DNA from: Escherichia phage JohannBuxtorf_Bas84
Length of the DNA stretch: 44,189 bases
Reading direction: 5' to 3' (one strand)
Sequence record: PQ850611.1
Below are positions 5,791-42,721 of this stretch, piece after piece. The position numbers were made by a program, and so were the translations under genes. The notes below the pieces were generated by a model, which saw only the letters and a list, made by a program, of their open reading frames with translations, had not been told where the DNA came from and ran no database searches. Position 1 is the stretch's first letter. Every line of letters begins with the position of its first letter.

Positions 5791-5814
5791 TGCAACCAAT
5801 ATAGTGCAACCAAT
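5791..5814. promoter_or_regulatory. tandem TGCAACCAAT motif pair in divergent intergenic region
   Basis: TGCAACCAAT at 5791-5800 and 5805-5814 (14-bp period) between divergent genes 5004-5768 (-) and 5918-6619 (+). Confidence 0.45.
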
Positions 5815-5917
5815 ACGAGGATTGCAAGCGAATTTTGCGATTATTTTTATCGCTGATAATATTAGAGGCGTGAAGTCGAGCGGGTGGCCTGCTCTGCCAC
5901 AATCCCAGGGGGATAGC

Positions 5918-6619
5918 ATGAAACTTACTAAAGCAGAATATGACGCGTTGCCGGAAGGTATGAAGGCGCTTTTTGTTGCCGATGGTGACGGGTATAAGTC
6001 AACATTCATGACCGCCGAAGAGGTACAGGCGGAAATTAAGGGTCTGAAAGACAACAACGCGAAGCTGGTGAGCGAGAAGAAAGCAGAAGCTGAACGTCGC
6101 GCCGAAGCCGAGCGCCTTGCGAAAGAGAAAGAGGAAGCCGCCGCGCGCAAAAATGGCGACCTCGAAGCGATCGACAAGTCCTGGAAAGATAAGTTTGCGA
6201 AACACGAAGCAGACACAGCGGGAAAAATCGAAGCCTACCGCAAGCAGATCCACGATCTAACCATCGGCAGCGCTGCCAAAGACCTGGCATCGAAGCTATT
6301 CGGTAAGAATGCCGGCATCATGCAACGCCACGTAATGGACCGTCTGACGCTGGAAGACGGCGAAGACGGCAGCTTGAAAGTGCGTGTCTTGCAGGATGGC
6401 AAACCGTCCGCGCTGACTATGGAAGAGTTAGAAAAAGAGTTCCGTAATAACGCCGATTTTGCATCCGTCCTGGCTGGCACGCCAGCCGGTGGCGCGCCTA
6501 GCAAACCGACGCAGGTTGTCGAAGATGTGAAGTCTAAAATTACGATGGGCCATAGCTTCGGTATCACCGATCTCACCAAACAGGCCGGTGAAATCATCGC
6601 TAAAATGGGTGACGAGTAA
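5918..6619 (+). CDS. putative scaffolding protein
   Basis: 233 aa from ATG with RBS AGGGGGA; highly charged, coiled-coil-like sequence (KKAEAERRAEAERLAKEKEEAAARK); immediately upstream of major capsid gene. Confidence 0.55.
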   Translation: MKLTKAEYDALPEGMKALFVADGDGYKSTFMTAEEVQAEIKGLKDNNAKLVSEKKAEAERRAEAERLAKEKEEAAARKNGDLEAIDKSWKDKFAKHEADTAGKIEAYRKQIHDLTIGSAAKDLASKLFGKNAGIMQRHVMDRLTLEDGEDGSLKVRVLQDGKPSALTMEELEKEFRNNADFASVLAGTPAGGAPSKPTQVVEDVKSKITMGHSFGITDLTKQAGEIIAKMGDE

Positions 6620-6716
6620 GCAGATTGCCCGCGAAAGCGGGCAATTTTGCGAGCGCGTAAATCTAAGGTAACATTAACGTCACTGGGCGAATGCTCACAA
6701 CTCAAAGGATTTCGAT

Positions 6717-7811
6717 ATGTCTTTAACAGTGTTCCAGCGTAAACTCGTTACCGCGGTTACGCAAATGATCCCCGACAACCTGAACGTTTTCAACGCCGCC
6801 GCCAATGGCGCTGTTGTTCTCGGTACTGGTGAAGTGCTGAATGACGTTATTGAGAAAATGTCCGTAGGCTTGATCGCCAACCTCGTTACCGACCGTAACG
6901 CCTACGCCCCCGTCGGCACTCCGGCGACCGCGAAAGTGCTGGCGCGTATGCTAACCAACTCGGTTAACCTTTCCGCAAAAGTGGGTCCGGTAGCAATCAC
7001 TAAGGCTATGATGGCTAAGATCGAAACCAACGTTAACAGCGTTGCGGCTGAGATTGCGGCACAGGCTACTCAAGCGATTATGCTGCACTACCTGAAAGCT
7101 GGTATCGGCGCAAGTAAAGCGGCGATCGAAAGCAACGCAGCGGCAAAATACACCCAACCGGCGCGCGTTGACGGCGTTGGCGGTCGTACCTTCCCGACCC
7201 TGGCAGACTTCCCGCTGGCGGCTTCTAAGTTCGGCGATCAGGCGTCTTTGATTAAGTCCTGGTTTATGGACGGCGTTACCTGGGCAAACTTCATTGCGTA
7301 CCAGGCACTCCCTTCCGCTGAACAGGTATTCGCAATTGGCGATCTCCAGGTAATGGGTGATGGCCTGGGCCGTCGCTTCATTATCTCCGATGCCGCTGCC
7401 GATGCTATGGGCGCGGGTAACATGCTGGGTCTGGTCCCTGGCGCGGTTGCAGTTACCACCAACGGCCTCGATATGCTGGCGCAGGAGAAAGGCGGTAACG
7501 AGAACATCGAACGCTGGTGGCAGGGTGAGTTCGACTTCAACGTGGCTGTTAAAGGCTACCGTCTGAAGGCGTCCGCTCGTACCCCGATCGAAGGTGTGCG
7601 CTCGTTCAAACTGGACGATATTACCACTTCCGCTAACTGGGAGCTGGACCAGGGCCAGGTAGACAACGCACCGGCAACCGTTCAGGATGTTGGCGGCGAT
7701 AGCGATACTAAAGGCCGTCGTAAGACCCAGGCCGCACAGGCAGTGCCTACCCGTCACATCAAGGAAACCGCTGGCGTACTGGTTACGCTGACTGCGACCA
7801 CCGCGTCTTAA
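6717..7811 (+). CDS. major capsid protein
   Basis: 364 aa, RBS AAGGA; position after scaffold; followed by a strong intrinsic terminator, typical of highly expressed capsid genes. Confidence 0.75.
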   Translation: MSLTVFQRKLVTAVTQMIPDNLNVFNAAANGAVVLGTGEVLNDVIEKMSVGLIANLVTDRNAYAPVGTPATAKVLARMLTNSVNLSAKVGPVAITKAMMAKIETNVNSVAAEIAAQATQAIMLHYLKAGIGASKAAIESNAAAKYTQPARVDGVGGRTFPTLADFPLAASKFGDQASLIKSWFMDGVTWANFIAYQALPSAEQVFAIGDLQVMGDGLGRRFIISDAAADAMGAGNMLGLVPGAVAVTTNGLDMLAQEKGGNENIERWWQGEFDFNVAVKGYRLKASARTPIEGVRSFKLDDITTSANWELDQGQVDNAPATVQDVGGDSDTKGRRKTQAAQAVPTRHIKETAGVLVTLTATTAS

Positions 7812-7829
7812 TCGACGCACATCCCAAAT

Positions 7830-7855
7830 GGGCGGGCTTATGCCCGCCTTTTTTA
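7830..7855 (+). terminator. intrinsic terminator after major capsid gene
   Basis: stem gggcgggc/gcccgcc with 4-nt loop followed by T6. Confidence 0.75.
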
Positions 7856-7869
7856 TAGGAGTGAATCTA

Positions 7870-8370
7870 ATGTATGGCGACCCGCAAACCTTTGTCGATT
7901 ATGCCGCCGCGCGAGGCGTTGAAATTACGCAGAGCGACGCAACGCGACACCTTACCATTGTTAATGACTTCCTTAACGGCATCGACTGGATCGGCGAACA
8001 AGCGGACCCGACCGGAATTGACGCATGGCCCCGCGTCAACTACCCGTCAGACGGTAAGCCGGTGCAAAACACGCTTACTGAAGATTTGGCAGTAGTTCCC
8101 GCTGGGCAGATTGTAGACTTCGCGTCAATCCCTGTTGCCGTTGAGCAAGCCGTTTACCGGCTGGCTATGCTGGTGGCGGACGATGTTGATATTTCTCCGA
8201 TCGGGGACGGTAAGGAGACTATCCGCGAAACGGTAGGCCCGATCACGATGGAGTATGACCCGGCGTCGATTGGTAGCGGGGTGTCGTTCCCGTGGTGGGA
8301 TGGCTTGTTAGGCCACTGGGTTGATTCAGGCGGCAACGCCGCAGGCAATTTCGACGTATTCAGGGGGTAA
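7870..8370 (+). CDS. hypothetical structural protein (putative head-tail connector/adaptor)
   Basis: 166 aa from ATG preceded by RBS AGGAG; located between capsid and neck/tail genes. Confidence 0.4.
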   Translation: MYGDPQTFVDYAAARGVEITQSDATRHLTIVNDFLNGIDWIGEQADPTGIDAWPRVNYPSDGKPVQNTLTEDLAVVPAGQIVDFASIPVAVEQAVYRLAMLVADDVDISPIGDGKETIRETVGPITMEYDPASIGSGVSFPWWDGLLGHWVDSGGNAAGNFDVFRG

Positions 8371-41289: not shown

Positions 41290-41580
41290 ATGGATAAGCT
41301 GAACGAGTGGTTATTCGCCCTCGCGTGTCTGGCGGGGGGCTTCGTTGGCGCTCGCATTCATGGTGAGGCCACGAAAGGGCCATTAAACTTTGTGTTATAT
41401 ATCGTGGTCGGCTTCTTGTGCGCCGTTTTCGGTGCGCCAGCTATTGCCGAGTGGGCTGGCTTATCTGGCGAGCGCACTGTCGCCGGTTTGGGCTTCGTAA
41501 CTGCAATCTTCTGGATGCCAATAGCCGCCCGGATCAGGGAGACTATTGAGTCGTTCCGACTTCCGGGGGGTGCAAAATGA
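41290..41580 (+). CDS. putative holin
   Basis: 96 aa with multiple hydrophobic segments; directly upstream of endolysin cluster. Confidence 0.45.
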   Translation: MDKLNEWLFALACLAGGFVGARIHGEATKGPLNFVLYIVVGFLCAVFGAPAIAEWAGLSGERTVAGLGFVTAIFWMPIAARIRETIESFRLPGGAK

Positions 41581-41822
41581 TTATCTCCGTCCTGTTGTTT
41601 GTTATCATAGGGGCTTCGTCCCTGTTTAACGTGTACGCGCCATCCGTTCAGGATGGCTTCTTCGGTCGGGTGCTGTATCTGTTAACGGCAATGGTCTGTA
41701 TTATCGGATTGTTGCAAACAGGAGACGTATCTGACACCACCTGGACCGCGTTAATCTGGCTGTTTGCATTGCGCACGCTGCGTAATGCTGTTTTGAATGG
41801 GGTAAAACATGCGATTCAGTGA
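41577..41822 (+). CDS. small membrane protein (holin/antiholin candidate)
   Basis: 81 aa; hydrophobic segments; ATGA overlap with upstream gene; overlaps lysozyme start. Confidence 0.4.
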   Translation: MIISVLLFVIIGASSLFNVYAPSVQDGFFGRVLYLLTAMVCIIGLLQTGDVSDTTWTALIWLFALRTLRNAVLNGVKHAIQ

Positions 41823-42300
41823 CAACGGTCTACGATTTACGGCAGCATGGGAGACGTTTAGCCCGGTGCCGTATTTCGCGACTAAGAAAGAGCAGGCCCG
41901 CGGCCTGTACACCTGGGGTTATGGTCACACTGGCACTAACCCGCCTCGAAGCATTACCCGCGCGGAAGCGCTGGAGCTACTTAAGCGCGATGTGGCGTAT
42001 GCTGAGGACTGGGTGAACAAATACGCGCATAAGAGCATTAACCAGGCGCAATTCGACGCGCTGGTGGACCTGGTTATCAATGCAGGTCAAGGTCCGATCG
42101 TACCGGACCATATTGCCAATGACTTCGACGACGCGGTGCGCTTGGGCGACTGGGCGAAGGTCCGTGCTACGCTGCCGCAGTTCCGCAAGCAAGGCGGCGA
42201 AGTGCTTAAGGGTCTGGTACGCCGTGCAATCGGCAGACAGGCGTTGTTTGATGGTAAGCAGTGGGACGTTGCCGAACGAATCGGTCGTAACGCTGCATAA
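41809..42300 (+). CDS. endolysin, phage lysozyme (GH24-like)
   Basis: 163 aa; RBS GGGG; N-terminal WETF...YTWGYGHTG resembles the E...GxWTIGxGHT core of lambdoid/P22-type lysozymes. Confidence 0.65.
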   Translation: MRFSDNGLRFTAAWETFSPVPYFATKKEQARGLYTWGYGHTGTNPPRSITRAEALELLKRDVAYAEDWVNKYAHKSINQAQFDALVDLVINAGQGPIVPDHIANDFDDAVRLGDWAKVRATLPQFRKQGGEVLKGLVRRAIGRQALFDGKQWDVAERIGRNAA

Positions 42301-42316
42301 TACGAGGGGACACGAT

Positions 42317-42484
42317 ATGTTAAAAAGTATTCTTGATCATAATGCGGACGCGCTTGCCGCACTGGCTAAAACCGAAGACCCAGGCGCACGCGCTATCATC
42401 GCGGACTCTATCAACCACGCCGGGGTCTTCGATGCGAAGCTGCCAAGCCCACCACCGCAGGAGGAATCTGGCCCCGCAGCGTAA
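42317..42484 (+). CDS. small hypothetical protein
   Basis: 55 aa; RBS GAGGGGA; followed by intrinsic terminator. Confidence 0.35.
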   Translation: MLKSILDHNADALAALAKTEDPGARAIIADSINHAGVFDAKLPSPPPQEESGPAA

Positions 42485-42491
42485 ACAATTA

Positions 42492-42516
42492 AGCCCGGAA
42501 TTAACCGGGCTTTTTA
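42492..42516 (+). terminator. intrinsic terminator after lysis cluster
   Basis: stem agcccgg/ccgggct with 6-nt loop and T5. Confidence 0.75.
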
Positions 42517-42721
42517 TTGCTTGACTCGCAACCAACATAGGGGCCATACTGCAACCAATCAACGAGAGGAGTAATCAAGATGGCACGTAAAGATATTTGG
42601 GTATTAGCGATCTGGACCACCGCGGCTTTTATCGGCATGGTTATTTGCGAATTGATATAGCCCGCCGCCATATGGACCGTGGTATATTGTCCACGGTCCA
42701 CTAATCAGGAATTAATTAAAT

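Follow-up and report, generated by a model that had tools for sequence, protein, structure and literature searches.

The DNA analysed here (the window) is the complete 44,189-nt genome of Escherichia phage JohannBuxtorf_Bas84 (PQ850611.1), an Escherichia coli Dhillonvirus (HK578-like siphophage), and the subject of this analysis is a short sequence that recurs in it, ATTGGTTGC(A), hereafter the box. The box, a genuine regulatory element, is distributed far from randomly and has been conserved in evolution. Judged from the sequence, there is an even chance that it serves as the operator of a phage-encoded DNA-binding protein, most likely the helix-turn-helix (HTH) product of 36308–36637, by which early and middle promoters would be repressed.

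In an exhaustive scan, the 10-mer ATTGGTTGCA was found in 12 exact and five one-mismatch copies, compared with 3.08 expected at up to one mismatch, and a total of 17 was reached in none of 100 shuffled sequences. An unbiased k-mer ranking against a second-order Markov model placed this 10-mer first (12 observed versus 0.12 expected), and ATTGGTTGC, with 16 copies, first among the 9-mers. The 8-mer core TTGGTTGC occurred 21 times in the genome, with 16 of these cores located in the 5.4% of the sequence that is non-coding in a hand-curated gene map (binomial P = 9e-17). Three further cores (24847, 29409 and 40127) occupied the last codons of a gene and overlapped the predicted promoter of the next one, and those at 13007 and 16356 alone lay deep in coding sequence, matching the approximately two expected by chance. 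The consensus over the window and all related loci was (A/g)TTGGT(T/c)GC(a>c>g), with unconserved flanks. Copies in the window formed eight direct-repeat pairs (spacings of 12, 12, 14, 16, 17, 23, 31 and 35 bp) and four or five singles; over all loci, neighbouring copies were nearly always direct repeats at 9–55 bp with no favoured phase, and just one convergent and one divergent pair were found. An earlier note on this sequence had described a recurrent motif, mostly intergenic, arranged in direct-repeat pairs of variable spacing and occurring in either orientation. The scan bore out the recurrence, the intergenic placement, the pairing and, relative to transcription, the mixed orientation; the equal density in coding sequence that was to refute the note was not found. 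The coordinates given there were all right, some of the copies being one- or two-mismatch variants, and the list of sites stood except that an exact copy at 40126–40135 on the minus strand had been overlooked.

The window is collinear with Haito_Bas83, PTXU06, slur05, jat and approximately 190 other records (88%–95% identity). Its genes form three blocks, namely structural genes on the plus strand (1–20540), a leftward replication/recombination block (23658–36085) and a rightward block that starts at 36308 with the HTH protein and the helicase-primase, continues through small genes, lysis genes and an SbcD-like nuclease, and runs on into terS. An integrase is absent and the phage is virulent; Dhillonviruses are called lytic in the BASEL and genome papers. 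Within this layout, the boxes span about −40 to +18 of approximately 11 conserved sigma70-type promoters, which serve all non-structural operons. The copies at these promoters are as follows.

5791–5800, minus strand: exact motif, covering the 3′ end of the −10 element and +1 of the leftward Nmad5 promoter (TAtATTGGTTGCA)
5805–5814, minus strand: exact motif, in the spacer of the Nmad5 promoter
5798–5827, minus strand: predicted sigma70 promoter TTGCAA-18-TATATT for the Nmad5 gene 5004–5768 (score 13.4)
21810–21819, minus strand: exact motif, its TTGCAT being the −35 element of leftward TTGCAT-17-(TGt)AATACT (21786–21814), in the divergent region upstream of the tail-fibre gene
24834–24843, plus strand: exact motif, reverse-oriented, in the spacer and abutting the −10 element of leftward TTGCAA-17-TACATT (24828–24856)
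24846–24855, plus strand: exact motif, its palindromic TTGCAA being the −35 element of the leftward promoter 24828–24856
26498–26507, minus strand: exact motif, in the spacer of leftward TTGCAT-17-TATATT (26491–26519)
26515–26524, minus strand: exact motif, providing the −35 element of the leftward promoter 26491–26519
29396–29405, minus strand: degenerate copy ATTGGTCGCG (two mismatches), in the spacer of leftward TTGCTG-17-TATAGT (29384–29412)
29408–29417, minus strand: copy ATTGGTTGCT, providing the −35 element of the promoter 29384–29412, in the last codons of the VRR-NUC gene
33213–33222, plus strand: copy CTTGGTTGCT, reverse-oriented, just after the −10 element (+1 region) of leftward TTGACC-17-TAGATT (33223–33251)
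33229–33238, plus strand: copy CTTGGTTGCG, in the spacer of the promoter 33223–33251 and abutting its −10 element; like the copy at 33213 it reads CTTGGTTGC(T/G)
36109–36118, plus strand: exact motif, in the spacer of leftward TTGACA-18-TATTAT (36102–36131), the promoter predicted to be the strongest
39386–39395, plus strand: exact motif, providing the −35 element of rightward TTGCAT-17-TAGATT (39391–39419)
39417–39426, plus strand: exact motif, over the −10 element and +1 of the promoter 39391–39419, followed by the leader caccaacgaGAGGA..ATG (39450)
40126–40135, minus strand: exact motif, overlapping the −35 element (TTGCAA) of internal rightward TTGCAA-17-TACATT (40125–40153), inside the 3′ part of gene 39939–40208
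42527–42536, minus strand: copy GTTGGTTGCG, reverse-oriented, in the spacer beside the −35 element of rightward TTGACT-18-CATACT (42521–42550), a promoter that comes after a terminator
42550–42559, minus strand: exact motif, right after the −10 element (+1 region) of the promoter 42521–42550, followed by caacgaGAGGAg..ATG (42580)

Relative to the promoter elements, the boxes provide the −35 hexamer in forward orientation (TTGCAN with a 17-bp spacer) at 21810, 26515, 29408 and 39386, and in reverse orientation (palindromic TTGCAA) at 24846 and 40126. Others fill the spacer up to the −10 element (5805, 24834, 26498, 29396, 33229, 36109 and 42527), lie over the last three bases of the −10 element and the start site (5791 and 39417) or follow directly after the −10 element (33213 and 42550), so that box starts are found at −28, −22/−20, −16 to −10, +3, +6 or +14 from it. 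Promoters with a near-consensus −35 element (TTGACA at 36131, TTGACC at 33251 and TTGACT at 42521) bear boxes as do those with a weak one. In a position-weight scan, eight of the 14 top-scoring sigma70-like sites overlapped a box, and a stricter scan agreed for 36131 and 33251. Seventeen of the 21 boxes were wholly inside a promoter footprint, the footprints covering 32% of the non-coding DNA (P = 7e-6). Identity across 16 close relatives was 0.97 in the −35 hexamers, 0.92 in the −10 hexamers and 0.89 in the box cores versus 0.82 in other intergenic columns (Mann-Whitney P = 5e-6 for the −10 hexamers and 6e-7 for the box cores). Given that hexamers and cores are better conserved than the other intergenic columns, both the promoters and the boxes appear to be selected elements. 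The view of the earlier note that the motif is a phage-specific promoter element with no match to sigma70 was not supported, in view of these 17 copies in promoter-like sites with conserved hexamers and 17–18 bp spacers. Its other suggestion, an operator, fits the anatomy of the sites (asymmetric, in either orientation, from −40 to +18 and subject to turnover), leaving its interpretation as a whole partly supported. A plain sigma70 −35 element was rejected as well, since its fixed place 16–18 bp upstream of the −10 element and its single orientation are not shared by most copies; of about 21, five fit, those at 21810, 26515, 29408 and 39386 (forward) and 24846 (reverse), where TTGCA doubles as the −35 hexamer.

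Comparison with related phages, which the earlier note had proposed as a check, showed the motif enriched in 16 of 16 Dhillonvirus loci. Enrichment extended to four much more divergent syntenic contigs (L019–L022), whose helicase-primases are approximately 65%–68% identical to that of the window and which bear the box in the same intergenic regions, with turnover. ATTGGTTGC was the top 9-mer in L019 (10 versus 0.16 expected) and L022 (11 versus 0.17), and in L020 and L021 it occupied the same positions with other k-mers ranking higher. Bas83 and PTXU06 have the 24834 copy in the opposite orientation; L019–L021 have two abutting boxes (GCAACCAACGCAACCAAT) in the spacer of the 36131 promoter, where the window has one; and in L019 and L020 the second box of the first rightward promoter (39391) lies in the spacer instead of at +1. 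The sequence and spacing between paired boxes drift, and the boxes themselves are invariant. Because copy number, position and orientation turn over while the 9-mer does not change, the box behaves like an operator rather than a promoter hexamer, a pattern that fits a protein recognition unit needing just to overlap a promoter. Outside this group, E. coli Kagunavirus Bas74 contained three copies, close to the chance number and without enrichment; in Jerseyvirus SETP7, of which the replication half only was covered, one degenerate copy (TTGGTCGC) was found; and Serratia phage Tsm2 contained 12 copies, mostly coding, with one in a divergent promoter region. Viral contigs yielded at least 120 tandem-box stretches, unrelated 27-bp coding tandem repeats such as those of contig L100 among them, a figure that by rough estimate is near the chance number and uninformative on breadth.

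The best candidate for the binder, on circumstantial grounds, is the HTH protein, which had also been named in the earlier note. The gene and its upstream region are as follows.

36308–36637, plus strand: candidate binder of 109 aa, with a long helix and a C-terminal three-helix HTH
36248–36294, plus strand: promoter of the HTH gene, TTGACA-17-TAGTTT (36248–36276), followed by a degenerate palindrome, GTTGGTcattaACCAAC (36278–36294)

In Pfam the protein matched HTH_23 (27.8 bits) and Sigma70_r4_2 (27.6 bits against a cut-off of 25.7), both above cut-off; its NCBIfam matches, to ECF sigma region 4 and transposase HTHs, were weak. No other small dedicated sequence-specific DNA-binding protein came up among the products scanned: Pfam scans detected no DNA-binding domain in 27 further gene products, which together with this one cover about half of the approximately 60 predicted genes. 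The AlphaFold2 model (predicted local distance difference test [pLDDT] 87) consists of a short helix, a 58-residue helix (22–79) and a three-helix HTH, and its nearest folds in Foldseek were LuxR/GerE/NarL and the E-helix-plus-HTH of serine recombinases, none of them significant (best E 0.67). Database labels of transposase, resolvase and 'recombination nuclease inhibitor gamma' (Gam) for this protein were unsupported by the present results. The protein co-occurs with the box and is confined to Dhillon-like phages (150 phage records); it formed 24 protein clusters in 5.8 billion sequences, and an exhaustive profile search recovered three full-length relatives. Residues 47–106 are nearly invariant even where the N-terminal part is unalignable, the pattern expected of a DNA-binding domain locked by approximately 20 genomic sites. 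Residues 1–45 (36308–36442) are hypervariable, with at least four unalignable versions, which suggests that the N-terminus is a diversifying interaction surface. The position equivalent to the leader of the HTH gene in L019–L021 holds a full (C/T)GCAACCAA(T/C) box, 8 nt downstream of the −10 element. The protein's own leader thus bears either a box (L019–L021) or a degenerate dyad (the window), which has the appearance of autoregulation.

We infer that this protein binds the box, that its effect is repression and that this acts on the early and middle phases, in the following way. The box lies inside approximately 11 host-type promoters driving non-structural genes, that is, the leftward replication/recombination segments, the rightward small-gene cluster, and the Nmad5 and membrane-protein accessory genes, with a degenerate box also in the regulator's own operon. 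One HTH would read one 9-bp box, and the long, probably dimerising helix could pair two HTHs flexibly enough to allow direct repeats at 9–35 bp. Because one or two boxes cover the −35 element, the spacer, the −10/+1 region or the early leader, binding would either keep RNA polymerase off the promoter or prevent it from escaping. In this way, transcription from the early and middle promoters would be turned off or reduced, with autoregulation of the protein itself, and box-free candidate late promoters of the extended −10 type, those of terS and the holin gene, would stay active. The four boxes of the form ATTGGT(T/C)GCC described below may have a second role as an origin or a roadblock.

The candidate late promoters are TGtTATAAT at 44112–44120 upstream of terS and TGaTATAGT at 41249–41257 upstream of the holin gene, both having an extended −10 element, no usable −35 element and no box. 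Their TGn extension is kept in L019–L022 and the hexamer varies; similar TGaTAATAT elements occur before the scaffold gene and after the major tail gene. Several promoters have their predicted start inside the 5′ arm of an intrinsic-terminator hairpin, an arrangement that recurs at 26491, 41249 and 10653. As predicted from the sequence, upstream transcripts would stop at such a hairpin and promoter-started ones would escape it. The sites noted for late promoters or such overlaps were 44080–44120, 41249–41290, 5854–5862, 10653–10685 and 26465–26496.

Several points weigh against the repressor interpretation. Boxes at −35 could also mean activation, and a literature search found no transcript 5′ ends or expression timing for Dhillonviruses. 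The promoter calls are based on position-weight matrices and are partly circular where the box is itself the −35 element, and weak promoter-like matches were no commoner genome-wide than in shuffled sequences. Serratia phage Tsm2 is without the HTH protein yet has a box cluster. The sole diverged homologue of the protein, P0025 of contig L022, carries changes in the recognition helix (R99K, S100N and R103Y) with the box unchanged; since the protein is altered and the L022 box is the same, there is no protein–DNA covariation tying the HTH to the box, a result that neither links nor unlinks them.

Four boxes lie apart from any promoter, in a 540-bp non-coding region 3′ of the helicase-primase gene.

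36648–38912, plus strand: helicase-primase (AAA_25) with a possible C-terminal winged-helix segment, an alternative binder
38924–38933, plus strand: non-promoter copy ATTGGTCGCC (two mismatches), in a 54-bp tandem duplication
38978–38987, plus strand: non-promoter copy ATTGGTTGCC
39013–39022, plus strand: non-promoter copy ATTGGTTGCC, followed by an AT-rich stretch (39020–39070)
39295–39304, minus strand: non-promoter copy ATTGGTTGCC, approximately 42 bp from the mapped termini of the linear PTXU06 record

All four read ATTGGT(T/C)GCC, and their final C is invariant in the relatives. The layout of three direct copies and one inverted copy, then a stretch of approximately 70% AT, is the same in L019–L022 and Tsm2. 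In the 54-bp tandem duplication (38913–38990), the stop region of the helicase gene is accompanied by a box and by a 20-bp palindrome that is nearly perfect (GATATGGGAATTCCCATATC in PTXU06); about half of the relatives have the duplication and the others lack it. Six GCGGGACA repeats follow the AT-rich stretch at 39073–39175, and an approximately 200-bp copy of this repeat segment, 85% identical, lies at 11419–11620, flanked by the genes for the tail chaperone and the tape measure. Terminase might bind these repeats (cos/pac), of which the segment at 11419 would be a duplicated copy. On the window, the termini of the linear PTXU06 record fall at approximately 39345, near the midpoint between the inverted boxes at 39295 and 39386. 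The PTXU06 paper says nothing on Dhillonvirus termini and gives no end determination, so that a cos assignment is tentative. The four-box cluster could be an origin (iterons and an AT-rich element by the replicase gene), a roadblock or part of a packaging region.

This cluster is the basis of the first alternative, which we consider unlikely, namely that the boxes are replication-initiator sites of the iteron or DnaA-box kind at an origin after the helicase-primase gene, the promoter copies coupling transcription to the initiator. The binder would then be the C-terminal winged helix of the helicase-primase, as in the alpha protein of phage P4, or the HTH protein acting as an origin-binding partner. 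The conservation of the four non-promoter copies by the AT-rich stretch in all relatives and L019–L022 agrees with an origin, as does the Tsm2 genome, in which four direct GCAACCAA(C/G) copies (9373–9494) occupy the corresponding location inside the 3′ end of the helicase-primase gene. That the Tsm2 copies are in two reading frames points to a DNA-level signal, and TGTGCGGAA/TTCCGCACA repeats after them (9590–9660) make the layout like that of the Dhillonvirus post-helicase region. Asymmetric 9-mers in both orientations at variable spacing are also found among DnaA boxes, and the HTH gene lies 10 nt upstream of the helicase-primase gene. However, 17 of the 21 copies are at promoters, away from the cluster. 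The C-terminus of the helicase-primase models as helix-helix-helix-strand-strand (local pLDDT 70–78) with MarR/ArsR matches (probability 0.98), but this segment is the less conserved part of the protein, with only 52%–62% identity among Dhillon-like phages and 27% with Tsm2, and a segment that varies in this way fits poorly as the binder of an invariant box. Moreover, the overall model of the helicase-primase is poor (pLDDT 43) without a significant fold match, and its sequence matched no solved origin-binding domain. A combined scheme, to which we give equally small weight, is a DnaA-like circuit in which one sigma-region-4-like HTH protein, made together with the helicase-primase, would read the 9-mer both at an origin beside the genome end and in essentially every −35-dependent promoter, so that build-up of the initiator would fire replication and switch transcription to the box-free extended −10 late promoters.

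Also unlikely is that the same phage protein activates, or acts in both ways depending on position (GerE- or MotA-like), with boxes that replace a weak −35 element (TTGCAN) recruiting RNA polymerase and those in the spacer or at +1 repressing. In the four forward-oriented promoters (21810, 26515, 29408 and 39386), the box begins precisely 28 bp ahead of the −10 element, always with a 17-bp spacer, the four −35 hexamers concerned match TTGACA at three of six positions, and the HTH resembles sigma region 4 and GerE/LuxR-type domains. These same promoters nevertheless hold a second box in the spacer or over −10/+1, which is incompatible with activation, and promoters with a consensus TTGAC(A/C/T) −35 element have boxes too. 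In addition, −35 boxes occur in both orientations, and the −10 hexamers are good enough for unaided initiation.

It is improbable that phage promoter cassettes have the box as an intrinsic cis-element, an extended −35/initiator consensus read by host RNA polymerase alone and spread by duplication. TTGCA does resemble a −35 element, and the conserved leaders reported in the earlier note were recovered, ATTGGTTGCAcaccaac..GAGGA at 5791 (minus) and 39417 (plus) and TGCAACCAAT..ACGAG(A)GGA at 5805, 21810 and 42550. The near-identity of the first of these leaders, and of aatcctcgtATTGGTTGCA at 5805 and 21810, over more than 20 bp suggests duplication of promoter–leader modules. In conflict with a cis-element, however, boxes of both orientations are found, at six or more offsets from the −10 element that include the spacer and the transcribed leader, second copies align with no −10 element, and four copies have no promoter at all. 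The ATTGG half is the most conserved, yet it has no role in sigma70 recognition, and boxes have been gained, lost and inverted inside otherwise conserved promoters.

The site of a host transcription factor is very improbable. CytR, the nearest candidate, tolerates direct or inverted repeats with variable spacing and reads GTTGCATT octamers in either orientation, and related boxes do occur in phages of other enterobacterial hosts (Sodalis SO-1 and Serratia Tsm2). However, the exact octamer is in four boxes only, and what is conserved is ATTGGTTGC: the ATT after GTTGC that CytR needs is unconserved and the ATTG that it does not need is conserved. The 70 bp around each box contained no CRP-like site, neither DnaA boxes nor sigma54 geometry match, and enrichment is absent from E. 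coli Kagunavirus Bas74.

Several known elements were rejected on specific grounds. No match to a sigma54 promoter (TGGCAC-N5-TTGCA; GG/GC doublets 12 bp apart) overlapped a box, and the pair spacings are incompatible with one. The DnaA box TTWTNCACA matched the genome once, at 27998, with no relation to the motif. Lambda-type palindromic operators do not correspond to an asymmetric 9-mer, the sole weak dyad being that in the regulator's own leader. Stoperators of the L5/Bxb1 type were rejected on account of the mixed orientation of the boxes (forward at 26498, 26515 and 29408; reverse at 24834, 33213 and 42527) and their location in promoters in 17 of 21 cases. Rfam gave no match at the gathering threshold anywhere in the window, and the mixed orientation relative to transcription disfavours an RNA-level element.

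The arrangement of sites seen with dispersed asymmetric operators, as with C1 of phage P1, was found here at approximately 11 promoters of several operons. Like the P1 system, the present one has many asymmetric scattered sites, single or paired, over promoters and would use one protein for many operons. The P1 operator is 17 bp long (ATTGCTCTAATAAATTT), and C1 is the lysogeny repressor of a temperate phage; its operator sequence is unrelated to the box, and Dhillonviruses are lytic. L5 gp71 and Bxb1 gp69 are phage HTH binders of short asymmetric sites (13-bp stoperators at approximately 30 places, mostly intergenic), although stoperators are oriented one way and act on elongation, whereas Dhillonvirus boxes are mixed and at promoters. 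DnaA boxes are likewise asymmetric 9-mers, with a cluster by replication genes and an AT-rich stretch and copies in promoters including the regulator's own, but the box has no similarity to TTATCCACA, the candidate is a 109-aa HTH protein without an AAA+ module and the origin role is putative. With GerE/LuxR proteins and sigma70 region 4, the HTH protein shares its C-terminal fold (GerE, NarL, SdiA, RhlR and TraR), and with GerE the combination of a small protein, many promoters and a position-dependent outcome; it differs in its long N-terminal helix and hypervariable head, and GerE sites are dyad-like pairs while the boxes are mostly direct repeats. As with T4 MotA/AsiA, −35-dependent promoters are told apart, the box-bearing ones being of the −35/−10 type and the box-free candidate late ones of the extended −10 type, whereas the MotA box is fixed at −30 in one orientation and activating. 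The MotA and AsiA families had no match among the 27 products in the Pfam scans, which included no test aimed at them. Overall, the system is likest in its working to the dispersed operators of P1 C1 and in its possible double use to DnaA boxes, and belongs to neither family by sequence. The literature searched contained no description of the motif, of Dhillonvirus promoters, regulator or temporal programme, or of the function of the HTH protein. The kind of system (one phage protein, many dispersed operators) is familiar; neither this instance of it nor its regulator family has been described. Common among E. coli phages, Dhillonviruses are included in the BASEL collection and are used for defence-system and therapy studies. 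The box yields a map of approximately 11 early and middle promoters, a testable regulator and a candidate origin, which could be used in phage engineering (payloads under early or late control) and in telling which genes are expressed when defence systems fire.

Other features of the genome and its relatives were also recorded. The Nmad5 gene (5004–5768, minus strand) is a lone leftward gene amid the head genes, encodes nucleotide modification associated domain 5 (Pfam E = 1e-57) and is preceded by the two-box promoter; it hints at a DNA-modification function in Dhillonviruses. A candidate small RNA of approximately 65 nt lies at 36140–36235 on the minus strand, with a strong promoter, TTGAAA-17-(TGt)AATAAT (36235–36207); its 5′ part is unstructured and its terminator is a hairpin with a U10 tail (minimum free energy −17.4, z −3.35). 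Its 5′ sequence CUCAUUGUCU and the promoter/terminator layout are kept in L019–L022, and no Rfam match was found for it. In an unrelated IMG/VR viral contig (3300045988_123041; L100), a 27-bp tandem repeat array at 7840–8210 contains ATTGGTTGC in each unit; this is probably a coding repeat that resembles the box by coincidence. The k-mers ACGGCAGC, ACGGCAAC and CAACGGCA are approximately 10-fold over-represented in this phage (ACGGCAGC, 29 versus 3.0 expected), an excess shared by Bas83, Serratia phage Tsm2 and Kagunavirus Bas74. The excess shows a strand bias (21 plus versus 8 minus) and may arise at the codon level.

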